Shown in pieces: positions 8,366 to 31,387 of a stretch of 32,014 nucleotides of DNA. The notes beneath the pieces were generated by a model. It did no database searches, was not told the origin of the DNA, and saw only the letters and a list, made by a program, of their open reading frames with translations. Source of the stretch: Candidatus Bathyarchaeota archaeon (GTDB lineage: Archaea > Thermoproteota > Bathyarchaeia > TCS64). Every line of letters starts with the position of its first letter. Position 1 is the stretch's first letter. Position numbers and translations under genes: made by a program. The stretch lies in the NCBI GenBank assembly GCA_013329615.1, contig DUKA01000032.1:1-32014 (forward strand). Reading direction: 5' to 3'.

Positions 8366-9217
8366 CTAAGTAGTCAGGCGCTCAGTTTCTTGTCCCGGCT
8401 TCGCCCCCGCGCAGAGGACGTAGCCGATGTATTTGCTCGTCTCCTTGTTCCTCAGTAGCGTCTTCTTGGCGCCACTCAAGGCGGCAAATTTCTTCCGCAT
8501 CTTGCCGCTCCTCAGAGAGTAGATGAGCACCTTCCAGAGTGCACCGGCTAGCTTACCCCATCCGCTGAAGGCTTCGATGACGCCCTCTGAGTAGGGGCTC
8601 TCATTCGCGTTGGGGTGCTCTTCCAGCGTGACGTCGGTGAAGCCGGATGCTTTGAAGGCTTGACTCCAAATCTCGGGGCTGCGGAGGGTAAATGGCAGCT
8701 TGGTGAGTTCGCAGAACGCCTTCTCGCTCGCGTTTACCTGCCCCTTGGCTTCGGGGGGCACTCCCTCGGCGCGGTACATCTCGTTGACTCCTAGTCGGCC
8801 TCCGTCCACGAGGACCCTGCCGAACTCGGGGAACGCCCTTGCGGGGTCGAGGAACTGACTGACGAAGACCGTAACAACCACGTCAAAGGAAGCGTCCGGG
8901 AAGTGGAGGCGGTAGGCATCCCCTATCTTGAAGGAGACTCGGTCGGTCAGTCCGCGCCTTTGGGCGCGTCTCGTGGCCTCGAGCACCATGCGCTCGGCGA
9001 TGTCCACACCCACGACTGTGCACCCGTATCGTTCGGCGAGGTAGCAGGCGTTCCCGCCCGTGCCGCAGCCGACGTCGAGTACCCTCGTCCCAGCGCCTAT
9101 GTGGCACATCTCGGCGAGCCGATCCATGCTCACCTGACCTCCTATGTTGAAGAAGGGGATGCCGATGTAGCCCATGAAGTCGTAGTAGCCGAGGTTCTCC
9201 ACCTCTTGGATGCTCAA
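8366..9217 (-). CDS. Class I SAM-dependent methyltransferase
   Basis: 283 aa. It has the SAM motif I VLDVGCGTGG and an acidic post-I residue (VGVDI). The track start is a TTG; an alternative ATG at 9175 is possible. Confidence 0.8.
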   Translation of the reverse strand: MSIQEVENLGYYDFMGYIGIPFFNIGGQVSMDRLAEMCHIGAGTRVLDVGCGTGGNACYLAERYGCTVVGVDIAERMVLEATRRAQRRGLTDRVSFKIGDAYRLHFPDASFDVVVTVFVSQFLDPARAFPEFGRVLVDGGRLGVNEMYRAEGVPPEAKGQVNASEKAFCELTKLPFTLRSPEIWSQAFKASGFTDVTLEEHPNANESPYSEGVIEAFSGWGKLAGALWKVLIYSLRSGKMRKKFAALSGAKKTLLRNKETSKYIGYVLCAGAKPGQETERLTT

Positions 9218-9334
9218 CTCGTCTGACGCGCCGCCTCCCCCCGTGCCTGAAATTTGGCTATCCTCTTACATCGACACTCGCTGAGCCGCGGTTTAGGGTT
9301 ATGGGTTATATCGCCCCGCAGCCACTCAAGAGTG

Positions 9335-10282
9335 ATGGCTCGCCTCGACTTCGGGTTACAGATCGAGCCCCAGTACGGGTTCAGCTACGAGGGCATCAGG
9401 GGAATCGCCGCGGAGGCGGAGGGGCTCGGCTTCGAGTCTCTCTGGGTCTCGGACCACTTCTTCATGACGCCGGAGTCGGTGGACACGTCTTGCCTTGAGT
9501 GCTGGACGACGCTCTCCGCCCTCGCCCGGGACACGAGGCGGCTGCGCCTCGGCGCCATGGTTGCCTCCCAGAGCTACAGGAACCCCGCCCTCGTGGCGAA
9601 GATGGCGGCCACAGTCGACAACATCAGCGGCGGGCGCCTCAACTTCGGAGTCGGCGCTGGGTGGAAGGACGTGGAGTACGCCGCCTACGGGTACCCGTTC
9701 CCGAGCCCCGACACGCGCATCAGGCAGCTCAACGACTCGCTGGAGATCGCGAAGAGGATGTGGACATTGGGAAGGGCCACGTACGAGGGCAAGTACTACA
9801 GCGTAAAGGACGCCCTCTGCGCCCCGAAGCCGGTCCAGAAGCCCCACCCGCCCATCTGGGTCGGCGGCACAGGCAGCTTCACACTCAAGATAGCGACGCG
9901 CCACGCCGAAGCCATCAACTTCGCGTGGACCATACCCACCCCACGATTCAAGGAGAAGCTCGACGAGTTCAGGGGCTACTGCGAGGCACGCGGCAGGGAC
10001 TACGCGGGCATACGCAAGTCCGCCGGCCTCATGATCACCATGGCAGAGAACGAGACCGCCCTAAAGGCGATGCTCCGCCGACGCGAAGCAAACAAGGATA
10101 CACCCTACGCCCAGTACCTCGGCAAGCAGCAGCCCAACCTCGTCGGCACAACCAAGCAAGTTGCCGCACGAATCAAGGAATACACGGCGCTCGGCGTCGA
10201 CCACTTCATCCTCAGGTTCCACTTCGGCGAGGAAATCGAGGGTATGAGGCTTTTCACCGAGAAGGTGAAGCCACACCTCTAG
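9335..10282 (+). CDS. LLM-class (luciferase-like) F420-dependent oxidoreductase
   Basis: MARLDFGLQ...AEGLGFESLWVSDHF...LGAMV...NISGGRLNFGVGAGW is the typical LLM signature. ATG 9335 is preferred over the track start 9254, and a TATA-like GTTATATC lies about 25 nt upstream. Confidence 0.85.
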   Translation: MARLDFGLQIEPQYGFSYEGIRGIAAEAEGLGFESLWVSDHFFMTPESVDTSCLECWTTLSALARDTRRLRLGAMVASQSYRNPALVAKMAATVDNISGGRLNFGVGAGWKDVEYAAYGYPFPSPDTRIRQLNDSLEIAKRMWTLGRATYEGKYYSVKDALCAPKPVQKPHPPIWVGGTGSFTLKIATRHAEAINFAWTIPTPRFKEKLDEFRGYCEARGRDYAGIRKSAGLMITMAENETALKAMLRRREANKDTPYAQYLGKQQPNLVGTTKQVAARIKEYTALGVDHFILRFHFGEEIEGMRLFTEKVKPHL

Positions 10283-10660: not shown

Positions 10661-10924
10661 ATGGGGAAAGTGGCGGTCTCCAAGATAAAATACTTCAAGA
10701 AATCTGGGGCACGACTCTACATACCACAGAGCGTACTCGACGACCCGAATTGGCGCTTCAGCGACGGGGATCTGGTCAAGATCGAGGTGGGGAACCCGTC
10801 GATAAGCCTCAGTAAACCCGAGTGGTGGGAGATGCTCGACTGGAACGAGATGGCTGAGACATACAAACTTCTGCCCGAGGAGATACGTGAAAAGATCAGG
10901 AGCCGCGGGCTACTCAAGTCCTAG
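10661..10924 (+). CDS. Small hypothetical protein with an AbrB/SpoVT-like swapped-hairpin N-terminus
   Basis: 87 aa with an ATG start and host-like codon usage. ARLYIPQSVLDD...FSDGDLVKIEV resembles the (V/I)xIPKxxxxxLxLxxGDxVxIEV AbrB/MazE pattern. Confidence 0.5.
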   Translation: MGKVAVSKIKYFKKSGARLYIPQSVLDDPNWRFSDGDLVKIEVGNPSISLSKPEWWEMLDWNEMAETYKLLPEEIREKIRSRGLLKS

Positions 10925-14369: not shown

Positions 14370-15830
14370 GTGTCACGTTTCCTCGCCTTCGACCTCGGTG
14401 CCTCCAGCGGCAGGACGATCCTAGGCGAGCTTGGGGACGACGACAGGCTCGGGGTTTCAGAGGTTCACAGGTTCCCAAACGGCGCGGTGGACATCGGGGG
14501 ACACCTTCACTGGGATGCGCCGAGGCTTCTTGGGGAGATTCATGAGGGCATGCGCCGATGCGGGGGCGATCCCGATGTAATAGGAATAGACACGTGGGGC
14601 GTTGACTACGCCCTGATCGATGCTAAGGGACGAACAGTGGGGGCTCCGTATGCCTACAGGGATCGGCGGACTGAGGGCGCCGTCGACTCCTTCGCGGGGA
14701 AGATGCCCCTCGACCGCCTCTACGAGCGCACCGGGATACAGGTACTCCCCTTCGACACTCTCTTCCAGCTTCACGCCGCGGCGAGGGATGAGCCCGGGTC
14801 GCTGCGCTCTGCCCGAAGCCTGCTCATGATGGCGGACCTCTTCAACTACCAGTTGACCGGCGTGGCGGCGTCCGAGTTCACTCTGGCGACGACCACCCAC
14901 ATCTACAATCCTCGGCTCCGTGGATGGGACGACGATATAATCTCTACCCTCGGTGTCCCTAGGCGACTCTTCCAAGAGATCGTGGAGCCCGGGACGATCC
15001 TAGGAGAGCTTACACCCGAGGCGCGTTCCTCGACCGGGTTGAGGAAAGTGCCAGTCGCCGCCGTTGCGTGCCACGACACCGGCTCCGCAGTTGCCGCGGT
15101 CCCAGCCGAAGGCACCGACTTCGCGTACATCAGCTCTGGGACGTGGAGCCTTATGGGGATGGAGTCGAGGGAGCCGGTGATAAACACGGTTTCAGCACGC
15201 AACAACGTGACCAACGAGGGCGGAGTCGGGCACACTTACAGGGTGCTGAAGAACATAGCTGGGCTCTGGCTCGTTCAGGAGTGCCGGAGGGCGTGGGGCG
15301 GCGGATACGGGTACGACGAACTAACCGCCCTCGCCGAGGCGGCGAAGCCCCACGTCGCGGTCATCGACCCTGACTGGCACGGGTTCCTCAACCCGCCGTC
15401 GATGCCCGACGCCATAGCCGACTACTGTAAGAAGACGAGGCAGAACACACCGTGTAACCACGGCGAAACGATACGCATAGCCCTCGAAGGCCTCGCCCTA
15501 GCCTACAGACACACGCTCCACCAGCTCGAAGAGGCCTCGGGGAAGAGGGTTGAGAGGATACACATCGTCGGCGGCGGGGCGCGTAACGGGCTGCTGAACC
15601 GCTTCGCCACGGACGCTACAGGCAGGCGCGTATACGCAGGCCCGGCCGAGGCCACAGCCATAGGCAACCTGCTGGTCCAAGCCATGGCGACAGGCCGCGT
15701 GAGGGACCTCAACCACATAAGAAGTATAGTAAGGGGCTCAACTGAGATAGCCGAGTACGAGCCCGGAGAAGCCGGGGCTTGGGACGAAGCCTACGAGAAG
15801 TTCAGGGAACTGAAGGAGACGATGATTTGA
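14370..15830 (+). CDS. rhaB: Rhamnulokinase (FGGY carbohydrate kinase family)
   Basis: 486 aa with a GTG start. FLAFDLGASSGRTILGEL...HRFPN...WD is the rhamnulokinase N-terminus, and FGGY C-terminal motifs (HIVGGGARN) are present. It lies immediately upstream of rhaA. Confidence 0.9.
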   Translation: MSRFLAFDLGASSGRTILGELGDDDRLGVSEVHRFPNGAVDIGGHLHWDAPRLLGEIHEGMRRCGGDPDVIGIDTWGVDYALIDAKGRTVGAPYAYRDRRTEGAVDSFAGKMPLDRLYERTGIQVLPFDTLFQLHAAARDEPGSLRSARSLLMMADLFNYQLTGVAASEFTLATTTHIYNPRLRGWDDDIISTLGVPRRLFQEIVEPGTILGELTPEARSSTGLRKVPVAAVACHDTGSAVAAVPAEGTDFAYISSGTWSLMGMESREPVINTVSARNNVTNEGGVGHTYRVLKNIAGLWLVQECRRAWGGGYGYDELTALAEAAKPHVAVIDPDWHGFLNPPSMPDAIADYCKKTRQNTPCNHGETIRIALEGLALAYRHTLHQLEEASGKRVERIHIVGGGARNGLLNRFATDATGRRVYAGPAEATAIGNLLVQAMATGRVRDLNHIRSIVRGSTEIAEYEPGEAGAWDEAYEKFRELKETMI

Positions 15831-17080
15831 ACGTGGATAGGGCATACGAACTCGCCGAGGAGGCGTATTCCGACCTAGGCGTAGACGTCGAGGCCGCCAT
15901 GCGCAGGCTGGCTGCGAAGAGCATCTGCCTCCAGTGCTGGCAGGGGGACGACGTGGCGGGCTTCGAGAGGCCCGGCGCCGCCCTAACGGGAGGCATCATG
16001 GCGACAGGCAACTACCCCGGCAAGGCGAGGAATGTCGCCGAGCTGCGCAGCGACTTAGAGACCGCGATGAACCTCATAGCCGGCCCACACAGGGTGAACC
16101 TCCACGCCACGTACGGCGAGTTCAAGAAAAAGGTTGATAGGGACGAGGTTGAGCCCGAGCACTTCGACGGCTGGGTACAGTGGGCGAAGGAGCACAAACT
16201 AGGGCTGGACTTCAACGCCACCGTCTTCTCCCACCCCAAGTCGGACAACGGGTTCACCCTCAGCAGCAAGGACCCCGAGATACGCAGCTTCTGGGTGGAG
16301 CACGTCAAACACACGCGCACCGTCTCCGCCTACATCGGCGGTCGCCTCGGCACGCCCTGCATACACGACCTCTGGATACCCGACGGAATGAAGGACAACA
16401 CCGTGGACAGGATCGGCTACAGGAGACTCCTCGCCGAGTCACTCGACGAGATATACGCCGTCAAACACCCCCGCGAGCACATCAAGGACACTGTGGAGTC
16501 GAAGCTCTTCGGTCTAGGCAGCGAGTGCTACGTGGTGGGCAGCCACGACTTCTACCTCGCCTACGCGCTGAGGCACGACCTGCTCGTCTGCATAGACATG
16601 GGGCACTACCACCCGACGGAGTCGATAGGAGACAAGCTGAGCGCCATACTCCTACACATGCCCGAGATGATGCTCCATGTCAGCCGCGGCGTACGCTGGG
16701 ACAGCGACCACGTGCCCGTAGTCGACGACCAACTGCGCGAGACCATGCTTGAGGTCGTCAGATGCGACTCCCTCGACAGGGTTCACCTCGCCCTCGACTA
16801 CTTCGACGCGAGCATAAACAGGGTCGCGGCGTGGGTCGTCGGCGCCCGGGCGACGCAGAAGGCGCTTCTGGGCGCGCTGCTTGAGCCACGTAAGATGCTT
16901 CTTGAGGCGGAGGAGGCGGGCGACTACACGGGGCGCCTCGCGCTGCTTGAGGAGGCGAAGGTGCTGCCACTCGGCGCGGTCTGGAACAAGTTCTGCGAGG
17001 AGCAGGGAGTCCCCTCGGACCGCGAGTGGATGACAGTGATCAGGAAGTACGAGAAGGCGGTCCAGTCGAAGAGGCGTTAG
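15827..17080 (+). CDS. rhaA: L-rhamnose isomerase
   Basis: The sequence is collinear with E. coli RhaA as I remember it. Shared blocks include CWQGDDVxGFE, TGNYPGKARN, WIPDGMKD, LHVSRxVRWDSDHV, DFFDASINR and GDYTxRLALLEE. TTG 15827 overlaps the rhaB stop (ATTTGA) and follows a GGAGA element. GTG 15833 is an alternative start, and the track ORF opens at 15779. Confidence 0.9.
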   Translation: MNVDRAYELAEEAYSDLGVDVEAAMRRLAAKSICLQCWQGDDVAGFERPGAALTGGIMATGNYPGKARNVAELRSDLETAMNLIAGPHRVNLHATYGEFKKKVDRDEVEPEHFDGWVQWAKEHKLGLDFNATVFSHPKSDNGFTLSSKDPEIRSFWVEHVKHTRTVSAYIGGRLGTPCIHDLWIPDGMKDNTVDRIGYRRLLAESLDEIYAVKHPREHIKDTVESKLFGLGSECYVVGSHDFYLAYALRHDLLVCIDMGHYHPTESIGDKLSAILLHMPEMMLHVSRGVRWDSDHVPVVDDQLRETMLEVVRCDSLDRVHLALDYFDASINRVAAWVVGARATQKALLGALLEPRKMLLEAEEAGDYTGRLALLEEAKVLPLGAVWNKFCEEQGVPSDREWMTVIRKYEKAVQSKRR

Positions 17081-20478: not shown

Positions 20479-21168
20479 ATGAAAGTGCTCGCGTTAAACG
20501 CAAGCCCAAGAAAACAACACGGCACTACAGACATAATCATCGACTACTTCCTAGAAGGGGCCAGACAAGCCGGGGCAACCACTAAGAAGCACTACGTCAC
20601 AGACCTCGACATCAAGGGTTGCACCGGCTGCTTCACGTGCTGGACTAAGACCCCTGGAAGATGCATACACCGTGACGATATGGATTGGCTGATCCCAGAG
20701 ACAAAGGAAGCCGAGATAATCATATTCGGGACCCCCATCTACAACGGAAACATCACCCACTACATGCAGCGAATGACCGAGCGCTTCCTACCCACTCTAC
20801 TCCCTTGGATGGAGGAGAGTGGAGATACCACGCATCACCCACTGAGATACGAGAAAAAACCACAGAAGAGAGTACTCGTGGCGGTGGCCGGATTCCCCGA
20901 TCACCAAGCATTCAACATAGTCAAGGCGATCTCCCCTGACTCACTCCATATCCTGTTACCCAGCAGCCAAATCCTCCAAGATATGGAAGGCAAAAAACTG
21001 ATGAAGGGTTTCACGGACGCGGTGACAGAGTCTGCGAAACAACTAATCAGGCGTGGGGAAGTAGACCAAGAAACTAAAAACAAGCTAGTCGTGGAGCACA
21101 GCACAGAGATAAAGAATCTGATTAGAGAACACGCAAACAGGTACTTCGAAGCCCATCTGGAAAAATGA
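20479..21168 (+). CDS. Iron-sulfur flavoprotein / NADPH-dependent FMN reductase family protein
   Basis: 229 aa. It has MKVLALNASPRK, the compact Cys motif CTGCFTCWTKTPGRC, and IIFGTPIYNGNIT. G+C is lower than in the neighbours. Confidence 0.8.
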   Translation: MKVLALNASPRKQHGTTDIIIDYFLEGARQAGATTKKHYVTDLDIKGCTGCFTCWTKTPGRCIHRDDMDWLIPETKEAEIIIFGTPIYNGNITHYMQRMTERFLPTLLPWMEESGDTTHHPLRYEKKPQKRVLVAVAGFPDHQAFNIVKAISPDSLHILLPSSQILQDMEGKKLMKGFTDAVTESAKQLIRRGEVDQETKNKLVVEHSTEIKNLIREHANRYFEAHLEK

Positions 21169-21327: not shown

Positions 21328-21540
21328 TTGATAGCATTGGGCAAGATCGACAAGGGCCAGAAATGCACGGTCAAGAACTGCAAACAGGACGCGGTGCGCT
21401 CCGTCAGCGTCGAAAAGGCGAAGGCAGCCGGACTCGAAGTCGAGGGCAAGAACGCCTACGTCTGCGAGGAGCACTACAAGCAGTTCAAGAAGGGAAACAA
21501 GAAGTCGGACCAGATAGAGAAGTGGCGCTTCGGCCGCTAG
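21328..21540 (+). CDS. Small basic hypothetical protein with a CxxC...CxxH motif
   Basis: 70 aa with a TTG start (alternative TTG at 21337) and host-like codon usage. It has CTVKNC ... CEEH and a Lys-rich tail. A TATA-like GATTTATAG lies about 25 nt upstream. Confidence 0.5.
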
Positions 21541-22994
21541 CCGCTGAACTTGGGGCGCGACTGCAGGTACCTGGGTACGGGCAGCGGCCTCCACGGCTTG
21601 TCGCCGACGACGCCCTTGATCTCCGCGGCGAGGTCCGCGGGGGAGTATTCTGAGAGCTTCCCCGTCGCCCTGACGCGTACGGGTATCTTCTCCTTCCCCG
21701 CCTCCTTCTCGCCGATGACGAGGGTGTAGGGTATCCACTCCTTCTCCGAGTCCCTGATCTTCTTGCCGACCGACTCGTCCCTGTTGTCGACGTCGACCCT
21801 GATCTTCGATACCTCTATCTCGGCGGCGATCTTGTCTGCTGCGCCGAGGTAGTCCTGGCTGACGGGGATGACGCGAACCTGAGTGGGCTGTAGCCAGAGG
21901 GGCAGCATGGGGCGCTTGCCGACCTTCATGTCGAAGGCCGCCTTCTCCAGCAGGGCGTAGATGTCCCTCTCGATGGCGCCGCTGGGGCTGCAGTGCAGGA
22001 TGAGGGGGTGCTTGGTGGTGCCGTCCTCCTCCATGAACTTAATGCCGTACCTCTCGCCGTTCTCGACATCTATCTGGTCGGTGCTCAGGGCGCTGGCCTT
22101 GTCGAGGTTATCGACGAAGTTCCTCTCCCACTTCAGAATGAAGTAGAAGATGCGCTCCCGCCACATCTCCACCAGCACCGGCTTGCCGTGGGTCTTGACG
22201 AGGTTGACGACGAAGTCCTTGTTGTTCTCCCAGAACTCCTCGGTGAGGCGGACGCCCAGCTCGTAGTCGCTGTTGTGTATGCCTATGCCCTCGAGGACGT
22301 CGGCGCTCATCTTGAACCTGACCATGAACTCCTCCTTCGCCTGCGGGAGGTCGCGACACATGGCGTGGACGTCGGGCATGGTGAAGCTGCGGAGCCTGCG
22401 CAGGCCAGTGAGTTCGCCCTTCTGCTCCCTGCGGAAGCTGTAGCGGGTGAGCTCGTAGAGCTTGAGTGGGAGGTTCTTGTAGCTGATGGTCGCGTCCTTA
22501 GCCATGAGGAACTGGCCGAAGCACGCCGCGAAGCGGAGGAAGTACTTGTCGTCGTCGGACTCGATGGTGTACTGGCGGGCTGGGAAGCGGTTTAGGTAGT
22601 TGGCGAGGGTCGGGTGGTTGAGGTTGTACATGATGGGGGTCTCGACCTCCATGCCGCCGTACTTGCCGACGGAGCTGGAGACGTACTCCTCCAGGAGCGC
22701 CTTCATCATCCTGCCCTTGGGGTAGAAGCGCATATTACCGGGGTCGCTCGCGGGCTCGTAGTCGACGAGCTCCAGCGCCTTCATCATCGTGACGTGCGGT
22801 GGCTCCTGGTGTACTGTCCTGTCCTTGTCTACCTCGTAGCCGGCGAATTTCCGGAGGTTGTCGCGGCCCTTGAAGTTGAACTCGTCTATCTTGTGGAGTT
22901 CGCCCTCTAGGTCGAGTATGTACCAGTGTGACTTGAGCTTCTCCTCCGCCTTCAGCGCTGCGGAGACTACCTCTTCCTTCTTGTTTTCAGCCAT
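21537..22994 (-). CDS. thrS: Threonyl-tRNA synthetase, catalytic form lacking the N-terminal editing domain
   Basis: 485 aa from ATG 22994 (the track opens at GTG 23030). It has archaeal ThrRS blocks: class II motifs [22 protein letters not shown] and [17 protein letters not shown], plus a C-terminal anticodon-binding region (VRVIPVS...[34 protein letters not shown]). Confidence 0.9.
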
Positions 22995-23163
22995 TGTTTT
23001 TGCCTTCCAGTTGGAGGCGGCGACGCCCACTATCCCCTAGGGTTGGTTGTTGTCTTAGAACCTCGGGGGAGCGTCTGGGATTGCCTTGGGCCTTTCGGCC
23101 TAAACTGTTTGGCGGGTGGTCACCGCGCTCTCCTCTGAACATCAACGGTGGGGAGGTGTGTTT

Positions 23164-23847
23164 TTAACCTTTATGTGCTTTGGGGGCGAGGTGGGCGTGC
23201 TTTACGGCGTATGTGCCGCTGGTGCCCTCCCAGACCACTTCCGCCTCGTCTATGACGAGCCTCTTTCTGAACCAGGGCGCGTCGACGACGAGGCTCTCGT
23301 ACTCGCCGCCCTCGCCGCATACGTTGACCCCGAAGCGTTCACTCAGTCCTGCGAGCTCCGCCGCGGCCTTCTTGTCGATGCGCCTGCCGAGCCAGCTCTT
23401 GTCGAGGCCGTTCGCCGCGGCGTGCACTAAAATTATCTCCATCCCCGACTTGATCTCGGCCTCGAGGACCTCCTGCGGGTTCTTCCCCCACAGTGGGGAC
23501 AGGTGGATTATGCCCAGTTCACTGCATAGCTGATTTACCCTGTCCCGCTGGTACTTTGAGGCTATTGCGCCGCTGACGACGCCCTTCACGTCCAGAAGCT
23601 CGATGAGGTGCTTCAACTCCTCGACCTCCTTCTCTTTCTCGCCACTGCTTGGGGCGGAGGCGAGGGGCTTGCCCTGCGCCTCGGCGACGAGGGGGGTTAA
23701 GTGGATGTTGACCCCGTGGAACATGTAGCTGTCCCCCCGGGCGGGGCGCATGCAGGCGAATATGGAGACCTCGTGCCCCCCCTTTTCGGCGAGGTACGCA
23801 GCGTATGTGCTATCCTTCCCCCCGGAGAAGAGCGCGGCCAGCTTCAT
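23164..23847 (-). CDS. dph6: Diphthine-ammonia ligase (Dph6; DUF71 PP-loop ATPase)
   Basis: MKLAALFSGGKDSTYAAY contains the PP-loop SGGKDS. The remainder matches MJ0570-like proteins. ATG 23847 is preferred over the track start 23895. Confidence 0.85.
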   Translation of the reverse strand: MKLAALFSGGKDSTYAAYLAEKGGHEVSIFACMRPARGDSYMFHGVNIHLTPLVAEAQGKPLASAPSSGEKEKEVEELKHLIELLDVKGVVSGAIASKYQRDRVNQLCSELGIIHLSPLWGKNPQEVLEAEIKSGMEIILVHAAANGLDKSWLGRRIDKKAAAELAGLSERFGVNVCGEGGEYESLVVDAPWFRKRLVIDEAEVVWEGTSGTYAVKHAHLAPKAHKG

Positions 23848-23917
23848 GGATGAACACAATGGCTTTGGCTTTATTAGATGTGTGTGGGTATCCAAAGGTT
23901 ACAGGTCAAAGGGTAAC

Positions 23918-23967: not shown

Positions 23968-24210
23968 GTGGTAACCGTGGCCAAGGTAGTCCAAACCGAA
24001 CTCGATGAGAAAGAATACAGGCTCCTTAAAGAAGTCTCAAAGAAAAAGGGACTCTCGATAAAGGAGACGCTGAGAAAAGCGACAGTCACCTACATAGAAG
24101 ATCAGCTACCCCTAGAGGAAGACCCCATATTCAAGGTCAAACCAAGAGGGACGAGTGTAAAGACCAACGCATCAAGACTCGATGAACAACTCTACAGGGA
24201 GAAATCTTGA
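23968..24210 (+). CDS. vapB: Ribbon-helix-helix (CopG-like) antitoxin
   Basis: 80 aa with a GTG start. VVQTELDEKEYRLLKEVSKKKGLSIKETLRKA fits an RHH fold. It overlaps the downstream PIN gene by 4 nt. Confidence 0.7.
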   Translation: MVTVAKVVQTELDEKEYRLLKEVSKKKGLSIKETLRKATVTYIEDQLPLEEDPIFKVKPRGTSVKTNASRLDEQLYREKS

Positions 24211-24614
24211 GCCTCTTCTGGGATACGTCTGCCATTGTGGCCTACTACTATACTGACGATGTCTTCCACAGACCCGCTTCAAATTTCATGGAGGAGGTAA
24301 AGAAGAAACGCCTCTACAAGAGATTCTATATAACCGACTACATACTCAACGAATCCCTAACCTTCTTTGAACGCGTAGTTAAGGACCATGACCTCGCCGA
24401 GGAGGTCGGTGACGCAATATTCGAATCCAGTTTCGTTACGATCGAGCGAGTGGATGAGGAATTACTAAGTGAATCGTGGGAACTTTTCCGTCACAGAAGG
24501 GGAATGAGCTTCACGGATTGTACATCCTTCACTTTGATGCGGAGAATGGAATTGAAAAAAGCCTTCACCTTCGATAGGCATTTTCAGGAAGAGGGTTTTG
24601 AGACTCTCCCCTAG
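24207..24614 (+). CDS. vapC: PIN-domain ribonuclease toxin
   Basis: 135 aa with a TTG start. The conserved acidic residues are in the expected context: FWDTSAIVAY, TDYILNES, SFTDCTSF, FDRHF. Confidence 0.85.
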   Translation: MSLFWDTSAIVAYYYTDDVFHRPASNFMEEVKKKRLYKRFYITDYILNESLTFFERVVKDHDLAEEVGDAIFESSFVTIERVDEELLSESWELFRHRRGMSFTDCTSFTLMRRMELKKAFTFDRHFQEEGFETLP

Positions 24615-26013: not shown

Positions 26014-26577
26014 GTGTCTCACTTGAATCAGGTTCTCGATATAATCAAGAAGAGGCGCTCGTGGCGCGCCTTCGAGGCGAAGACGGTCCCTAAGAAGCTC
26101 GTGGAGCAGGTTATCAACGCGGGGAACGAGGCTCCCAGCGGCATGAACAGCCAACCGTGGCGCTTCGTCGTCATAGAGAGTGAGGCGATGAGGAGGAGGC
26201 TATTCGACGCCGCCTACCCCAAATGGCGAAGGGTCTACGAGGACCTGATGAGAAACCCCGCCTCCGCCAAGGAGGCCGAGAAATACGGGAAGATTGAGGA
26301 TCCAGTCTACTACCGCGCCCCCGTCGTCGTCTTCGTCATAGGCAAGGGGGCCGTCAACTGCGCACTCTGTTGCGAGAACATGATGCTCGCCGCCGAGTCG
26401 CTGGGGCTGGGGAACTGCTACGTCTACTTCGGCTCACTAATCAGGGACGACCCAGTGATCGTCGAGGCACTCGAACTCGGTGAAAAGGACGAGATATACG
26501 GCCCCATCCTCCTCGGCTACCCGAAGGGGAAACCCGAGGTACCACCCAAGAAGCCAGCGAAGGTGAAGTGGGTTTAA
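26014..26577 (+). CDS. Nitroreductase family protein
   Basis: 187 aa with a GTG start. IKKRRSWRAFEAKTVPKKLVEQVINAGNEAPSGMNSQPWRFVVI is the canonical nitroreductase N-terminus. A TATA-like GTTTTATAA lies about 28 nt upstream. Confidence 0.85.
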   Translation: MSHLNQVLDIIKKRRSWRAFEAKTVPKKLVEQVINAGNEAPSGMNSQPWRFVVIESEAMRRRLFDAAYPKWRRVYEDLMRNPASAKEAEKYGKIEDPVYYRAPVVVFVIGKGAVNCALCCENMMLAAESLGLGNCYVYFGSLIRDDPVIVEALELGEKDEIYGPILLGYPKGKPEVPPKKPAKVKWV

Positions 26578-26589
26578 AAATACGGGGCA

Positions 26590-27337
26590 TCATTTCTTGG
26601 GGGTGTTTTTCTTCGCAGCCTTTTCGCGCAGGGTTTTAATGCCTATAGCTACGGCCTTCACCCTGCCCGCTACACCGCCCTCGAAGCTGGCGTTCACTAT
26701 GTCCCTGTAGTCCTCTTTTGAAATGCTCATATCGCTGATGGCGTCCATGGTCTCCCTGCTGATGGTTCCCCCCGGCGAGTTCTGCCTCGGCTCTTCTTGT
26801 CGCCTCCGCATTGTCGTCGAACAGGCTCGGGGCACCCACAACTCCCGCCGTCGGGATTAGCGCCTCCCCCCCACATGCCTCGCGTGCCTCATCCATTTCT
26901 TGAAGTGAGCACTCATGAGGGAGAAGTTCTCTATATCGGGGAACCCGCAGGAGGCTACGAGCACGCCCTTGGCGGGGGATTGAACCTATGAGGGTGCACG
27001 GTCAACCCATCACCCATGTCAACCTAGAGGGGATCGAGGTTGACGAAGAATCTATCCATGACGTTTTTTACTGTCGCGGGGAAGCCGAAGGCGTAGACGG
27101 GGGCGGCGACGACCAGGTAGTCGTAGCGCTTGTAGACGTCGAAGATGCCCTGGAAGTGTCCCTCTGGACGCACTCCCTCCTGTTCTTGCCCACCCAACAG
27201 CTCTTGCACGGCCCTATCTTCATCTTGTGGTGGTAGAACTTGTGAAGTTCCACCTCCCCCATGCCGTCGATTAGTGTATCGAGCATCCTCTCGGTGAATG
27301 ACGAGTCTCTCTGCGGACCTGATATGGCGAGCACCAC
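26590..27337 (-). pseudogene. Disrupted iron-sulfur flavoprotein / FMN-reductase paralog (4 frameshifts plus 1 in-frame TAG)
   Basis: Five minus-strand pieces in three frames join into one flavoprotein collinear with the intact gene at 20479-21168. The pieces are: VLAISGPQRD..PCKSCW..ECVQRD / HFQGIFDVYKRYDYLVVAAPVYAFGFPATVKNVMDRFF..DPL* / KGVLVASCGFPDIENFSLMSAHFKKWM / EALIPTAGVVGAPSLFDD / TISRETMDAISDMS... Confidence 0.65.
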
Positions 27338-27496
27338 AGGTTTTTTCGCGCCGCCGTCGGGCTTGGACTTGGTATCTGGTTCGATGAGTGTCGATTAAAA
27401 GCCTTGGGCGGATGCCCCCACAGAATATTGAGCGAAAAACACCGCCATGGCCATCACTTATTATAAATTGTCTGTAACATCACACCACTACTCTGA

Positions 27497-27527
27497 CTTT
27501 TAATAGACAATAACATCAATCAATTGA
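27497..27527 (+). promoter_or_regulatory. TATA-like element plus a perfect 8-bp palindrome upstream of the envelope operon
   Basis: CTTTTAATAGAC (27497-27508) lies about 50 nt upstream of TTG 27559. TCAATTGA (27520-27527), preceded by ATCAA, sits between the TATA element and the AGGTGA Shine-Dalgarno sequence (27546-27551). Confidence 0.35.
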
Positions 27528-27558
27528 CAGTTGGAAAAAGGGGTTAGGTGACACTGGG

Positions 27559-28077
27559 TTGAAGAGAAAGGCGAGGATGATGGGCTTGCTGTTCGTCGTC
27601 CTCTGGTTCAGCGTAGTTACCGTCTCGGCCTACGTCTTCCAGCAGAGTCAGATGACTGTGACGCAGACGGTCAAGGAGATAGCCACGATTACTCTGCAGA
27701 ACTCCGCCCTAGGCAACATAAACGAGGGTGAGACGAAGGGTTACACGAAGGCGGAGGTAGCGACGCTCGGCAACGCGATAGAACTCGTCACGACAACCGT
27801 CGACGTCTACATGCATTTAAACAGCGACCTCGACTCCCAGGACGACTACTCTACCTACTCGATAACTGTGAAGTACATAACCGTCCCCGGCGGCTCGGCG
27901 CACAACGTTGGCGACACGGCGTGCACGCTGACCAAGGCGGCCCCCGACCCGGCTGGTGTGACGCTCGATGTCTCGGGCACTTGGAGGTTCGACCTCGAGA
28001 TCACGACCACGGCCAGTTCCGTCGACGCGGACACCCCGACAACCGTCACCATAATTGTGACGGCGGAGAGTACGTAG
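27559..28077 (+). CDS. Exported / N-terminally anchored Thr-Val-rich beta-rich protein of unknown family (possible TasA/camelysin-like fibre subunit)
   Basis: 172 aa. The TTG start lies 7 nt after AGGTGA. The N-terminus is MKRKAR followed by a 20-aa hydrophobic stretch. The mature part is rich in T/V/S/D with alternating beta-strand-like patterns and ends TVTIIVTAEST. Confidence 0.7.
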   Translation: MKRKARMMGLLFVVLWFSVVTVSAYVFQQSQMTVTQTVKEIATITLQNSALGNINEGETKGYTKAEVATLGNAIELVTTTVDVYMHLNSDLDSQDDYSTYSITVKYITVPGGSAHNVGDTACTLTKAAPDPAGVTLDVSGTWRFDLEITTTASSVDADTPTTVTIIVTAEST

Positions 28078-28085
28078 GTGTTTGT

Positions 28086-28307
28086 ATGATACGTGTCAGT
28101 GAGGGCTGGAAGAGGGCGGCGATGGTCGGGTCGGCGGTCATCTGGACCATCTCAATCCTCACAATAATGATAACTGGAGCGTTGAACCAGAACGTGTTCC
28201 CTGAGAGGGTCGACCCCGTGGTGCTGGCGACGCTCGTAGTCTCCACGATGGCCTTCGCGAGCGCGCTCGCATACATGGGGATAAAGAAGATCTGGTTCGA
28301 GTCCTGA
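28086..28307 (+). CDS. Small two-TM membrane protein
   Basis: 73 aa. ATG 28086 lies 5 nt after AGGTG (28076-28080). Two hydrophobic helices are present (AAMVGSAVIWTISILTIMITGAL and VVLATLVVSTMAFASALAYMGI). It sits between the two exported-protein genes. Confidence 0.55.
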   Translation: MIRVSEGWKRAAMVGSAVIWTISILTIMITGALNQNVFPERVDPVVLATLVVSTMAFASALAYMGIKKIWFES

Positions 28308-28332
28308 CGCCACGGCGTGGGAGACCCGGCGG

Positions 28333-29769
28333 GTGATCTCTTTGCGAGATGCGGGCGGCAGGCGGGTCGTCACCTCGAGGTCGAGGCTGGCCATGCTCCT
28401 AGGCGGGCTAATACTGCTCATCGTTGGACAGGTCGCCTCGGGCTACGTCCACGAGCAGAGCTCACAGGCGGCCACTCAGACGATTGTCTCGGCGAACGCG
28501 AAGGCGTTCATCGCGTATACGTCTAACTCTGGTTCCCTCCTCATGGAGTCGCCGAAGGGTGGGACGTGGACGGGGGAGGCATGGACGTATCCCGAGGAAC
28601 TCTCTTCCACGGGTGGCACGCTGATGTGGGTCAGGGCTGTGAGTTGCCCCCTCTCGGAGCGGTACTATGAGAAGATCGTCGTCACATTATCGTCAGATGC
28701 TCGTATCTCGGCGTTCGTCTGGACCGGCACAACGTGGTCGGTCTACGATGACATAGGGGCCGTGAACTCCGCCGCCGCGTCGTATCGATCCTTCGACGTC
28801 GTATACGAGGGCACAAGCGGTGACGCCGTGCTCGTCTACGCCGTCGACTCGGCGAGCGGGAGCGAGGACCTCGCCTACAAGGTGTGGGACGGGTCGAGCT
28901 GGTCCACCGAGACTTATATCAACGACGCGGGACACGGAGGAGATATCAATTACAGGTGGATGGCGCTCCGCTCCGACCCGACTGCGGGATCGGATGAGGT
29001 TGCCCTGATCGCTGTCAATCAGAGCAGCGGCGACGCCGACGCATGGATATGGGACGGCTCCAGCTGGGGGAACTTCATGGAGCTGGAGACTAGCCTCTCC
29101 TCGGTCAGGACGTGTGAGTGCCTCGGCCTCGCCTACGAATCGTCATCAGGTGCCGCGCTCTTCGCGTGGTGCGCCGCGGGGAACGTCGAGGCACGGGTCT
29201 GGTCCGGGTCGGCTTGGGAGGCTGAGCTACCAGCGGTCGTAATCTCGGTTACGAGCAACGTGCGCTGGATCACCCTGAAGCGGGACCCTTCCTCTGACAT
29301 AATTATGGCTACCACGATCGATCTGGATGATGATCTCAATACGATCCTGTGGGATGGCGCTTCTTGGGGCGTCCCCGAGGAGCACGCTACGGCGCTGACG
29401 ACCACTTCGAGGAGGTGCGCCGACTACGAGTGGGAGCCGTCGGGGAGCACTGGCCTACTGGTCTGTAGCGTAGAATCCGGTTCGCTGAGCTGGAAGAGAT
29501 ACGTCGCGGGCGGCACTTGGAGCGTGGCTTCAACGGTGGCTAACGCGGGGACGCATATATGGGTGACTCTGAGGAGGAATCCACGGGAGGTCTCGGGGGA
29601 CGTCAAGATATTTGGCGCCGCCCTGAACAGCAATCGGGACCTCTATGGATTCAGGTGGGACGGCTCGACGCTCACGTTCGAGGGCTCTGCGTTCACCGTG
29701 GACACTGGCTCCACCACCTACGAGTGTTTCGACATCGCCGTCAGGCCGATGTTTAGCCCTCTGAGTTAG
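28333..29769 (+). CDS. N-terminally anchored protein with eight WxGxxW repeats of about 50 aa (beta-propeller-like)
   Basis: 478 aa with a GTG start. It has an Arg-rich N-terminus and a hydrophobic segment. The motif recurs at aa 79, 130, 185, 240, 290, 340, 391 and 442: TWTGEAW, VWTGTTW, VWDGSSW, IWDGSSW, VWSGSAW, LWDGASW, YVAGGTW, RWDGSTL. Confidence 0.8.
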   Translation: MISLRDAGGRRVVTSRSRLAMLLGGLILLIVGQVASGYVHEQSSQAATQTIVSANAKAFIAYTSNSGSLLMESPKGGTWTGEAWTYPEELSSTGGTLMWVRAVSCPLSERYYEKIVVTLSSDARISAFVWTGTTWSVYDDIGAVNSAAASYRSFDVVYEGTSGDAVLVYAVDSASGSEDLAYKVWDGSSWSTETYINDAGHGGDINYRWMALRSDPTAGSDEVALIAVNQSSGDADAWIWDGSSWGNFMELETSLSSVRTCECLGLAYESSSGAALFAWCAAGNVEARVWSGSAWEAELPAVVISVTSNVRWITLKRDPSSDIIMATTIDLDDDLNTILWDGASWGVPEEHATALTTTSRRCADYEWEPSGSTGLLVCSVESGSLSWKRYVAGGTWSVASTVANAGTHIWVTLRRNPREVSGDVKIFGAALNSNRDLYGFRWDGSTLTFEGSAFTVDTGSTTYECFDIAVRPMFSPLS

Positions 29770-29770
29770 T

Positions 29771-31387
29771 CTACCAGCCTAGTGCCTGGCCGTCGCCACG
29801 TGGGTCGCTGCCCGCTGTGAGTGCGCCCGTCTTGGAGTTCCTGAGGATTATCTGACCCTTGCCGAAGATTATGCGGTTTGGTCCGGCGACGGGGATGACG
29901 TCATGGCCCATGCGGGCGAGGGCGGCCATGGTGTCTACGGGTATACCCTCCTCGAGGCTGACCTTGCCTCCGGCGGTGCCGTCGAGTATGCAGAAGCGGG
30001 GCGCGTCGAGCGCGTCCTGCGGCCCCATGCCGTAGTCGATCATGTTTGTGACAACCTGCACGTGGCCCTGTGGCTGCATGAAACCCCCCATGACACCGAA
30101 GGGGGCGTATAGGTCGCCGTTCCTCGTCATCATACCGGGGATGATGGTGTGGTATGGCCTCTTACCCGGGGCGAGGACGTTGGGGTGGCGCTTGTCCAAG
30201 CTGAAGCCGGAGCCCCTGTTCTGGAGGGTGAAGCCACAGCCTCTGGGGATGAGACCCGTGCCGAAGCCGGAGTAGTTGCTGTTTATGAAGCTGCAGGCGT
30301 TGCCCCAGCGATCTACGGTGCAGAGGTAGACGGTGTCGCTGCCCGTCACCGGGCTGCCGTGGACCCTGTCTAGAACTGCCTTGGCTGGGTTGATGTGCTG
30401 CCTCCTCTCCTCGGCGTACTCCTTCGAGATTAGCTCCTTGATGGGGACGTGTGTGACGGATGGGTCGGCGACATACCAGCGGGTGTCGGCGAAGGCGGTC
30501 CTCATGGCTTCGATGAGCAGATGGAGCCTCTGCGGGGAATCGTATGGGAGGTTTGTGAACCTGAATCCCTCGAGCACGTTGAGGGCGATGAGGGCCGTGA
30601 TGCCCTGCCCGTTTGGGGGTATCTCCCAGACGTCGACGCCGCGGTAGTTGATCGTGATGGGTTCGTCAAATGTGGATTTATGCTTCTTGAGATCTTCTAG
30701 GGTCATGGTGCCGCCCTTGAGGGCTAGCAGCTCGACTATCGCCTCGGCGACGCGGCCCTCGTAGAAGCCCGCCTTGCCGTGCTCGACGACCTCGCGCAGG
30801 CTCTTGGCGAGGGTGGGGTTCTTCATTATCTCACCCGCGCCTGGCGCCCTGCCGTTTATGAGCATCTCGTCCCCGTATGGCCCGGTTTTTAGGAAGGGTA
30901 TGCCATTCGCCCACGCGCGCGCCGTTAGGGGGGAGACGGGGTATCCTCCCTCGGCAAGCTCGATGGCAGGGGTGAGGACATCCTTCATGGCGAGTGTTCC
31001 GAACTTCTCGATGGTGTCCACCCAGCCCGCGACTGCGCCGGGGACCGTGACGGTGTGTATGCCGTTTGAGGGCATCTTGGTGAAGCCCTCGCCGAGGAGC
31101 TTCTCGGGGGTGAGCCCCGCAGGGGCGCGGCCGCTGCCGTTCATCCCCTTTACGCGTCCCTTCGCGGCGTCGTAGTAGAGTGCGAAGCAGTCACCGCCCA
31201 TTCCTGTGCTGCACGGCTCGGTTACGTTGAGTGCGGCGGCGACGGCGACCGCCGCGTCGGCGGCGTTTCCGCCCTTCTGGAGTATGCGCATCCCCGCCTC
31301 GCTTGAGAGGGGCTGGCTCGAGGCGACGACGCCCCGGGTCCCGTAAACGGGTGAGCGCCGCGAGTTGAACCACATCGCCACCACCAT
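29771..31387 (-). CDS. ggt: Gamma-glutamyltranspeptidase
   Basis: 538 aa with an ATG start. It has GGNAADAAVAVAAAL...P.STGMGGDCF, the autoprocessing Thr context GSDTVYLCTVD, and the GGFMQPQGH block. Confidence 0.9.
   Translation of the reverse strand: MVVAMWFNSRRSPVYGTRGVVASSQPLSSEAGMRILQKGGNAADAAVAVAAALNVTEPCSTGMGGDCFALYYDAAKGRVKGMNGSGRAPAGLTPEKLLGEGFTKMPSNGIHTVTVPGAVAGWVDTIEKFGTLAMKDVLTPAIELAEGGYPVSPLTARAWANGIPFLKTGPYGDEMLINGRAPGAGEIMKNPTLAKSLREVVEHGKAGFYEGRVAEAIVELLALKGGTMTLEDLKKHKSTFDEPITINYRGVDVWEIPPNGQGITALIALNVLEGFRFTNLPYDSPQRLHLLIEAMRTAFADTRWYVADPSVTHVPIKELISKEYAEERRQHINPAKAVLDRVHGSPVTGSDTVYLCTVDRWGNACSFINSNYSGFGTGLIPRGCGFTLQNRGSGFSLDKRHPNVLAPGKRPYHTIIPGMMTRNGDLYAPFGVMGGFMQPQGHVQVVTNMIDYGMGPQDALDAPRFCILDGTAGGKVSLEEGIPVDTMAALARMGHDVIPVAGPNRIIFGKGQIILRNSKTGALTAGSDPRGDGQALGW

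Follow-up and report, generated by a model that had tools for sequence, protein, structure and literature searches.

A candidate donor-strand surface polymer with interchangeable lectin-like heads encoded by a three-gene operon of Bathyarchaeia

Introduction

The biofilm fibre of Bacillus subtilis is the product of the TasA/TapA/SipW system, in which the Sec-exported jelly-roll protein TasA is the major subunit and donates its N-terminal strand to the next subunit, while the minor protein TapA has a mature N-terminus near-identical to that of TasA (PMC10151520, PMC9674648). The two N-termini read AFHDI (TapA) and AFNDI (TasA), and TapA can only start the filament (PMC10151520). In the Thermoproteota, the phylum of the locus described here, the bundling pilins AbpA (Pyrobaculum) and AbpX are jelly-roll proteins cleaved by signal peptidase I, and AbpA is processed by the generic peptidase (PMC9245690); the adjoining secreted protein AbpB has been proposed to act both as donor of the first strand and as adhesin, and the operon also encodes small multi-TM proteins. 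The Sulfolobus thread (Saci_0406) and the Pyrodictium cannulae (CanA/CanX) are polymers whose small beta-rich subunits are joined by strand donation without a chaperone, and the thread cap Saci_0405 has a donor strand without an acceptor site (PMC9715654). For the haloarchaeal Tat-fimbriae (TafA/TafC/TafE/TafF), a linear model comprises a tip adhesin, a core subunit, and a membrane anchor, the tip of TafC bearing a laminin-G-like domain (PMC11821415). Bathyarchaeia are not mentioned in the published surveys consulted here.

Here, we analyzed a three-gene operon (A, B, and C) within a 32,014-nt stretch of Bathyarchaeia DNA, hereafter the window. By analogy with the systems above, and with a rough probability of 0.5, we propose that it encodes a simple self-assembling surface fibre or matrix of the donor-strand type, with a sugar-binding tip and proteins of unnamed families. 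A preliminary description had interpreted the locus as a surface-fibre system made up of a TasA/camelysin-like or donor-strand subunit (A), a membrane anchor or assembly factor (B), and a propeller tip (C), an interpretation that our results partly support.

Results

Organization of the operon

Genes A (27559-28077; TTG start, 172 aa), B (28086-28307; ATG start, 73 aa), and C (28333-29769; GTG start, 478 aa) are all on the forward strand, separated by gaps of 8 nt (A-B) and 25 nt (B-C). An alternative TTG start for C lies at 28342 and is preceded by GGGTGATC. The Shine-Dalgarno sequence of A, AGGTGA, occupies 27547-27552, and AGGTG(A) is found 5-6 nt ahead of both the A and B start codons, which confirms the co-directional arrangement and matching ribosome-binding sites described earlier. 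The 221-nt intergenic region 5′ of the operon (27338-27558, forward strand) is AT-rich, as reported, with 45% GC versus 59% for the whole window. It probably contains the operon promoter, judging from the archaeal TATA consensus: a TATA-like TTTTAATA is located at 27498-27505, ~50 nt 5′ of the A start codon, and a second such element, TTATAAAT, at 27461. At its 3′ end, the operon abuts, as previously noted, a convergent gamma-glutamyltranspeptidase gene (29771-31387, reverse strand; Pfam E = 4e-151), which lies 1 nt past the C stop codon. Neither Rfam nor tRNA scanning returned a match in the window, which also encodes rhamnose catabolism genes.

The reported lack of dedicated assembly machinery nearby was borne out: when the remaining large ORFs of the window were scanned with Pfam, none matched a sortase, a secretion ATPase, a PilC-like protein, or a peptidase of the prepilin or signal type. 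The search for a pilus ATPase, platform protein, or prepilin peptidase was equally negative in the 32-kb window and in the annotated homologous loci, as was that for a SipW-type or other peptidase, in contrast to the TasA system. A chaperone-usher pilus was discarded, as no gene for a periplasmic chaperone or an outer-membrane usher was found in any locus. Archaea lack an outer membrane.

Protein A is a predicted jelly-roll protein of an orphan family

The first 24 residues of A (27559-27630, forward strand) constitute a predicted Sec-type signal peptide with a basic n-region (KRKAR), an h-region spanning L10 to V22, and a V-S-A c-region. Cleavage would occur after Ala24, which is invariant in the family alignment, Ser23 being almost invariant. 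Export would thus differ from that of the Tat-fimbriae, which use the Tat pathway and have a four-TM peptidase of their own, TafD. The h-region is better conserved (0.57) than the n-region (0.33), which is unusual for a cleaved signal and favors a nonpolymeric display of A on the cell. In that case, the N-terminus shared by A and its partner proteins (see below) would be a lineage-specific signal anchor or sorting tag, either retained in the membrane or passed to B, and A and the lectin-like heads would be glycan-binding proteins tethered singly at the cell surface or parts of an S-layer or sheath lattice. Against such anchoring, small residues at positions -3 and -1 suit signal peptidase I in all of these proteins.

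The remainder of the protein (residues 39-172 plus the stop codon; 27673-28077, forward strand) was modeled by AlphaFold2 (AF2) as a nine-stranded beta-sandwich with a pLDDT of 83, and mature A contains 19% Thr and 10% Val. Foldseek searches with this model retrieved jelly-roll proteins, including CanA and Ena2A, in agreement with the beta-sandwich anticipated for A. The highest TM-score, 0.46 for Pyrodictium CanA (9hdi), denotes a weak fold match unaccompanied by a sequence match; the best E-values corresponded to viral capsid jelly-rolls, and CanA ranked 41st. CBM36 was also among the matches, and the frequency of jelly-rolls in carbohydrate-binding modules is a further argument for single-molecule display. 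The cannulae are calcium-dependent tubes without a tip protein, unlike the system proposed here; the threads carry heavy glycosylation, but A lacks any N-glycosylation sequon. Its small size and the absence of this sequon also make A unlikely as an S-layer protein, although a lattice or sheath is kept as a form that an A polymer might take.

Sequence searches left A without a named family. It had no Pfam or NCBIfam match at E ≤ 1, including the TasA/camelysin family PF12389 (Peptidase_M73), and hmmsearch of the PDB with the A profile (E ≤ 10) retrieved none of 8aur, 7ueg, 7pnb, and 9hdi (TasA, AbpA, thread, and CanA, respectively); homology to AbpA, in particular, was not detectable. Similarly, hhalign comparisons of A alignments with TasA alone (a query checked against 8aur) and with a 59-sequence TasA-family alignment yielded probabilities of 1-4%. 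The TasA/camelysin-like assignment of A therefore stands for the predicted fold but not for sequence membership. An exhaustive A-profile search of 1.84 billion representatives produced only 70 matches and linked A to no named family; the distant matches gave nothing significant in family scans, and matches to repeat proteins were spurious. More than 214 homologues of A were nevertheless found, the best 120 of which share 56-86% identity, and they form a compact, well-conserved family nearly confined to Bathyarchaeia. As for A, neither B nor C matched an unrelated characterized family in Pfam or NCBIfam (nor, for A and C, in PDB profile searches), as the preliminary description had anticipated.

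Protein B is a near-constant companion of A

B (28086-28307, forward strand) is predicted to consist of two hydrophobic TM helices with basic termini and a short outside loop, whose motif is FPxxVDP here but PTFP in most relatives; a Trp in TM1 is invariant. Its best Pfam match, Cap15_TM (E = 0.013; 16.6 bits), was below the cutoff of 28.2, the best NCBIfam match, CydC (E = 0.16), was insignificant, and family scans of 15 B homologues revealed nothing significant. Almost every locus nonetheless has a B-like ORF 0-41 nt 3′ of A, and searching with a B profile recovered B directly after A in 25 of the 27 distinct homologous loci. The A-B-C triad recurs in the same order on three independent contigs (L027, L028, and L029) and is therefore not a chance arrangement; it is rearranged on two others (L006 and L007). 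The conserved triad proposed earlier thus does co-occur in related genomes, but its core is A plus B, the third gene being an interchangeable head. In some MAGs, the A-B pair is present in two or three copies, and five of the seven loci concerned carry their own head.

No equivalent of B is known from described filament systems, which counts against a polymer: the tapA operon has no such two-TM protein, and the Tat-fimbrial anchor TafF includes a pilin-like domain, whereas B comprises two helices and a loop only. A membrane protein as the constant partner of A would also suit nonpolymeric display. On the other hand, A is conserved across loci above C and B, which points to extensive protein-protein interfaces and argues against such display.

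Protein C and the interchangeable heads

C begins with a signal peptide (residues 1-37; 28333-28443, forward strand) with predicted cleavage after A-S-G37, and its orthologues retain the basic n-region and small -3/-1 residues. The bulk of the protein (residues 52-478 plus the stop codon; 28486-29769, forward strand) was modeled by AF2 as an eight-repeat beta-propeller with a pLDDT of 90.5. Eight blades agree with the eight WxGxxW repeats initially assigned to C, but only six of the motifs are exact (residues 79, 130, 185, 240, 290, and 340), the other two being degenerate (at ~392, and WDGSTL at 442). The top Foldseek matches were Photorhabdus PLL/PHL, Burkholderia BP39L, and the fungal fucose lectins AAL/AFL (E about 1e-10; TM-scores of 0.67-0.70 on the target), which likewise consist of Trp-rich repeated blades. 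These lectins have seven or six blades, however, and C adds a secretion signal and an extension. In addition, the sequence similarity is insignificant, the best hit of the PDB sequence search with C being the AOL lectin at E = 0.1, and C has no Pfam or NCBIfam match at E ≤ 1. C is thus predicted to be a lectin-like beta-propeller and a putative sugar binder, and this model, the Foldseek matches, and the shared extension bear out its description as a propeller carrying the N-terminal module of A. By its fold, this head differs from both the Ig-like TapA and the head of the AbpA/AbpB system, whose locus comprises eight genes instead of three.

In other genomes, the third gene encodes an exchangeable head of a different fold: LamG_3 plus DUF2341, 3-keto-disaccharide-hydrolase/ConA-like domains, or domains with weak CBM96-like matches. 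The LamG/DUF2341 heads adjoin A in four loci (L002, L010, L016, and L025) and resemble the laminin-G-like domain of TafC (PMC11821415). Both DUF2341 and LamG have been described as pilus-tip domains (PMC4858521, PMC11821415), which is at odds with display of single molecules. As all heads resemble lectins or carbohydrate-binding domains, and the window encodes rhamnose catabolism, A, C, and the heads might instead be secreted unassembled, as soluble glycan-binding or scavenging proteins with a clade-specific signal and with B unrelated to them. The A-B coupling, with its 0-41-nt gaps kept in 25 of the 27 loci, speaks against this alternative, as do the features of the extension described below, and we regard it as improbable.

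Distant relatives of the C propeller are fused to genuine type IV pilin N-termini, and the gene for one such protein belongs to a bacterial pilus operon, where T2SSE/T2SSF genes and N_methyl pilin genes flank it; the head is therefore a filament-mounted module elsewhere. In type IV pilus minor-pilin/adhesin fusions and DUF2341 tip proteins, heads of these two kinds join the filament via an N-terminal incorporation module (PMC4858521). That module combines a class III signal and a hydrophobic helix that is retained, whereas A and C have a predicted Sec signal followed by a polar strand.

A and C share an N-terminal extension

Past the predicted cleavage site, A and C each display a 14-residue extension: YVFQQSQMTVTQTV in A (residues 25-38; 27631-27672, forward strand) and YVHEQSSQAATQTI in C (residues 38-51; 28444-28485, forward strand). 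They are identical at 7 of the 14 positions and conform to the same pattern of the mature N-terminus, [YF][VI][YFH][EQ]...Q..TQT[IV], which is common to A, C, and heads of unrelated fold at other loci. Within the A family, the extension and the folded domain are equally conserved, each with a mean top-residue frequency of 0.64. In the AF2 monomer, it is not packed onto the domain: residues 2-30 form one helix running on from the signal peptide, followed by coil, and the region has block pLDDT values of 61-64. By analogy, the extensions of A and C are candidate donor strands.

Besides A and C, about two-thirds of the loci have a head with the Sec/signal-peptidase-I-like signal plus extension, and the A profile matches solely the first ~40 residues of these otherwise unrelated ORFs. 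In the C orthologues of L006 and L007, for instance, the extension is the sole part matching the A-family profile. Among the 1,852 ORFs of the window and L001-L025 (26 sequences), all module matches fell within about one gene of A, i.e., the module is not a general signal, because the genes bearing it are found only beside A. This restriction, together with conservation that continues past the cleavage site into the extension, is hard to reconcile with unassembled secretion. Likewise, anchoring alone poorly explains a conserved, polar, beta-prone 14-residue segment past the helix. In a permutation test, head extensions shared 7.1 of 14 positions with their own neighboring A versus 6.6 with other A proteins, a difference short of significance (p = 0.07).

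The helix spanning residues 2-30 of A, followed by a beta domain, is also the general layout of archaeal pilins, and Gly9 is nearly invariant in A. A and C might accordingly be atypical type IV pilins that keep the N-terminal helix after prepilin peptidase cleavage and depend for assembly on an ATPase/PilC machine whose genes lie elsewhere in the genome. The propeller heads on true pilins in other lineages, and the DUF2341 proteins that accompany archaeal type IV pili (PMC4858521), fit this possibility. However, all members of the A family have a hydrophobic residue at position -2 relative to Gly9, the partner proteins have no [KR][GAS] site, and the class III motif ([KR][GA]) is absent from A and all module proteins, every one of which has small residues at -3/-1 ahead of an aromatic residue. 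Moreover, the hydrophobic stretch measures only ~14-16 residues, the Pfam and NCBIfam scans matched neither Pilin_N nor an archaeal pilin model, and the ATPase, platform protein, and prepilin peptidase are absent from the window and the annotated homologous loci. On signal-peptide grounds, we rate type IV pilins as an unlikely explanation with little chance of being correct.

Discussion

In the donor-strand polymer that we favor, A and C would be Sec substrates that the general signal peptidase cleaves just ahead of the conserved aromatic residue (VSA/YVF in A and ASG/YVH in C), and both mature proteins would thereby begin with equivalent 14-residue extensions. By analogy, the extension of A would enter the jelly-roll domain of the next A as a beta-strand, and the resulting chains might form a fibre, a bundle, a tube, or a sheet. 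Having the extension and no A-like acceptor domain, C would be a donor only and therefore have to reside at one end, where it may nucleate or cap the polymer and display the sugar-binding propeller as a tip adhesin. C would in this respect resemble TapA and the thread cap; related tip or cap pairs are AbpB/AbpA (PMC9245690), Saci_0405/0406 (PMC9715654), and TafC/TafA (PMC11821415). In other Bathyarchaeia, LamG/DUF2341 or other ConA-like heads would be attached via the equivalent extension. The most speculative step concerns B, which is translationally linked to A and might, as an anchor or assembly factor, retain the subunit nearest the membrane or set it free, perhaps acting through the conserved signal helix.

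A has no sequence tie to known donor-strand subunits, viral capsid jelly-rolls came ahead of CanA by Foldseek E-value, and the pairing of heads with their own A reached only p = 0.07; these points weigh against a polymer. So does the one described Bathyarchaeia culture, Bathyarchaeum tardum, which showed no pili but only an S-layer plus an outer sheath (PMC10477458). A sheath without appendages would equally agree with nonpolymeric display, which we consider somewhat unlikely in view of the head domains known from pilus tips and of the conserved extension. As a tentative extension of the donor-strand reading, possible rather than probable, the operon may specify a sequence-orphan jelly-roll polymer that dispenses with a dedicated peptidase or chaperone, takes up interchangeable lectin heads via the common 14-residue strand, and perhaps corresponds to the outer sheath or matrix of Bathyarchaeum, with B as a new two-helix anchor or release factor.

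If the donor-strand polymer is real, the growing set of chaperone-free donor-strand filaments would gain a sequence-orphan family as well as B, an accessory protein of a new kind, and the plug-in, exchangeable lectin tips might offer a self-assembling display scaffold. A 15-kDa subunit and a short peptide make for a small test system. Bathyarchaeia are abundant worldwide and scarcely cultivated, and their cell-surface biology is almost a blank; the operon would provide a testable candidate for their attachment to one another and to glycans of plant or microbial origin.

Operon layout and predicted proteins

The three co-directional genes lie on the forward strand where the preliminary description had placed them: A (27559-28077, TTG start, 172 aa), B (28086-28307, ATG start, 73 aa), and C (28333-29769, GTG start, 478 aa), separated by gaps of 8 and 25 nt. 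As described, a convergent gamma-glutamyltranspeptidase (ggt) gene begins 1 nt past the stop of C. The 221-nt spacer 5′ of the operon has a GC content of 45% versus 59% for the window and contains two TATA-like boxes. AGGTG(A) is found 5 to 6 nt ahead of the A and B starts, in agreement with the ribosome-binding sites claimed for both, and an alternative C start (TTG at 28342) is preceded by GGGTGATC. A and C yielded no Pfam/NCBIfam match at an E value of ≤1 and B only insignificant ones, so all three still lack a named family. Pfam scans identified only housekeeping and metabolic genes in the rest of the window, and no secretion ATPase, platform protein, prepilin/signal peptidase, or sortase, as anticipated. 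Directly upstream, an NADPH-dependent FMN reductase gene (27024-27337, reverse strand) is split into overlapping ORFs (27068-27337 and 27024-27209), probably reflecting a frameshift, a pseudogene, or an assembly error; an intact paralogue maps to 20479-21168. A PIN-domain protein is encoded at 24207-24614, and an unannotated 87-aa ORF (10661-10924) occupies a lower-GC gap between luciferase-like and CoA-transferase genes in which Rfam and tRNA scans found no match.

The A family is compact. More than 214 clusters matched, the best 120 listed being 56 to 86% identical, and the taxon names on listed matches are all Bathyarchaeia or Bathyarchaeota, except for one MAG labelled Nitrososphaerales. 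When 1.84 billion representatives were searched exhaustively with the A profile, only 70 matched, and none bridged A to a named family. The family alignment unveiled four regions: a basic, variable n-region; a hydrophobic stretch of 14 to 16 residues; V-S-A, with Ala24 invariant and Ser23 near-invariant; and a polar, beta-prone segment, [YF]V[YF][EQ]xxxQxVTQT[IV], as conserved as the folded body. Consistently with the fold expected for A, the AF2 model is a nine-strand beta-sandwich (pLDDT 83), against which residues 25-36 are unpacked. Foldseek retrieved jelly-roll proteins, with the best E values for viral capsids and the top TM-score (0.46) for the cannula protein CanA; the spore-fibre subunit Ena2A was also among the matches. 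The suggested TasA/camelysin likeness thus holds for the predicted jelly-roll fold but not for sequence: A did not match PF12389, and hhalign comparisons with a verified TasA sequence and with an alignment of 59 TasA-family members gave probabilities of 1 to 4%. Since, in addition, an A profile search of the PDB found no known filament subunit at an E value of ≤10, no dedicated signal peptidase lies near A-B-C, and the CanA match is weak, we do not claim membership in a known family. Mature A (27631-28074) has no N-glycosylation sequon and one Cys. Its invariant or nearly invariant acidic residues (E56, D90, D130, D137, D145, E147, D158, and E170) may, by analogy, recall calcium-dependent assembly in cannulae and AbpX.

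At homologous loci, the A stop is followed after 0 to 41 nt by the start of a short ORF that encodes two hydrophobic helices and was frequently uncalled in the original annotation. A profile built from these ORFs matched in 25 of 27 distinct loci, with no B detected in L006 and L014. These proteins have in common a strictly conserved Trp in helix 1, an outside loop that is short and usually reads PTFP, a motif resembling G-L-D-K-L-G past helix 2, and basic termini; no known family matched.

The AF2 model of C is a confident propeller (pLDDT 90.5), closest to the Photorhabdus PLL/PHL, Burkholderia BP39L, and fungal AAL/AFL fucose lectins (E value of about 1e-10; TM 0.67 to 0.70 on target). Of eight WxGxxW repeats described initially, six are exact, spaced ∼50 residues apart, but two are degenerate. 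The signal peptide of C ends in A-S-G and is followed by YVHEQSSQAATQTI, identical to YVFQQSQMTVTQTV of A at 7/14 residues, which supports the proposal of a propeller using the N-terminal module of A. The window also carries an FGGY-family sugar kinase gene adjoining that of L-rhamnose isomerase (14370-17080; RhaA, E = 3e-184), a pairing indicative of deoxy-sugar catabolism. Fucose and rhamnose are ligands of the structural neighbours of C.

Exchangeable heads next to a conserved A+B core

The A profile also matched otherwise unrelated ORFs over their first ∼40 residues only, always next to A or about one gene away (counted among 1,852 ORFs in the first 26 sequences analysed, i.e., the window and L001-L025). 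Behind this module, neighbours of A-B bear different heads: the C-type propeller (L006, L007, and L027-L029), LamG_3 plus DUF2341 (L002, L010, and L025), DUF2341 only (L016), a 3-keto-disaccharide-hydrolase/ConA-like domain (L015), or small domains that weakly match CBM96 or GH114-associated models (L008, L013, and L017). A+B therefore forms the conserved core, next to which the third gene supplies an interchangeable lectin-like head borne by a shared N-terminal module. Co-variation between A extensions and those of neighbouring heads was not significant (p = 0.07). A type IV pilin reading of A and the heads is disfavoured, because their hydrophobic stretch is short and not preceded by a [KR][GAS] site, and no pilus machinery genes accompany them.

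The co-directional triad is also present on three independent contigs, where A/B/C identities are 86/74/76%, 80/40/58%, and 78/51/62% (A > C > B), but elsewhere other heads replace C; in L006 and L007, C is transcribed divergently from A. Some MAGs have two or three A-B copies (L016, L019, and L023 in MFD04408.bin.1.228; L008 and L012; L024 and L025), and a head adjoins five of these seven loci, none being found at L019 and L023. The L016 and L019 B proteins are identical, suggesting recent duplication, and L025 holds an extra A fragment (9008-9358). At 3805-5846 of L001, a 779-kb Bathyarchaeia contig, a few additional secreted proteins cluster ahead of A-B: one of 216 aa (full module), one of 155 aa (similar start, PIVA|YVYSQTQ), and one of 225 aa (Dockerin_1 domain), which hints at a larger extracellular assembly. 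Partial synteny around A spans distant Bathyarchaeia: nitroreductase and class II aminoacyl-tRNA synthetase genes occur close to A in the window (26014-26577 and 21537-23030) and in L004/L005 (6963-10463; ProRS-type in L004), and in L027-L029 the triad borders a diphthamide synthase gene (window counterpart, 23164-23895).

Several observations suggest that heads of these types sit on filaments. Distant propeller relatives of C differ in their N-termini, which are archaeal pilin-like in P0010 and carry the classical bacterial prepilin motif G|FS(L/I)xE in P0024, P0026, P0035, and P0036. The P0036 gene lies between T2SSE/T2SSF and N_methyl pilin genes within a bacterial type IV pilus operon. The C-type propeller is a mobile head domain. 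Two other homologues bear a cohesin domain (PF00963; P0017) and a He_PIG Ig domain (P0029). DUF2341 has been described as a pilus-tip adhesin domain of archaeal type IV pilus loci (PMC4858521), and a laminin-G-like domain is present in TafC, which forms the tip of haloarchaeal Tat-fimbriae (PMC11821415).

Proposed mechanism

The A/C pattern fits that of known chaperone-free donor-strand filaments, in which each Sec-exported jelly-roll subunit passes an N-terminal strand to its successor and the chain is begun or capped by a minor protein with the same strand. TapA/TasA offers the clearest precedent: the mature N-termini are nearly identical (AFHDI and AFNDI), and TapA, unable to accept a strand, can only start the filament (PMC10151520). 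AbpB/AbpA (PMC9245690), Saci_0405/0406 (PMC9715654), and TafC/TafE/TafA (PMC11821415) follow the same logic. On this likeness, we propose a donor-strand scheme in which A would polymerise via residues 25-38; C and the other heads, having the strand but no A-like domain, would take a terminal position as adhesins or nucleators; and B would serve as an anchor or assembly factor at the membrane end. The role of B, signal cleavage, and strand insertion are inferred, as is the higher-order form, which could be a fibre, bundle, tube, or sheet.

A non-polymeric, membrane-tethered display or lattice is also plausible, given the unusually high conservation of the signal helix, B as a membrane partner, and the S-layer and outer sheath, with no pili, of the only Bathyarchaeia culture described (PMC10477458). 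We put the donor-strand mechanism at roughly even odds (about 0.5). The initial interpretation of a self-assembling surface-fibre operon largely holds wherever testable, refined to an A+B core with exchangeable lectin heads. Collectively, these findings suggest that the locus is probably a new variant of donor-strand filament, built from sequence-orphan families.
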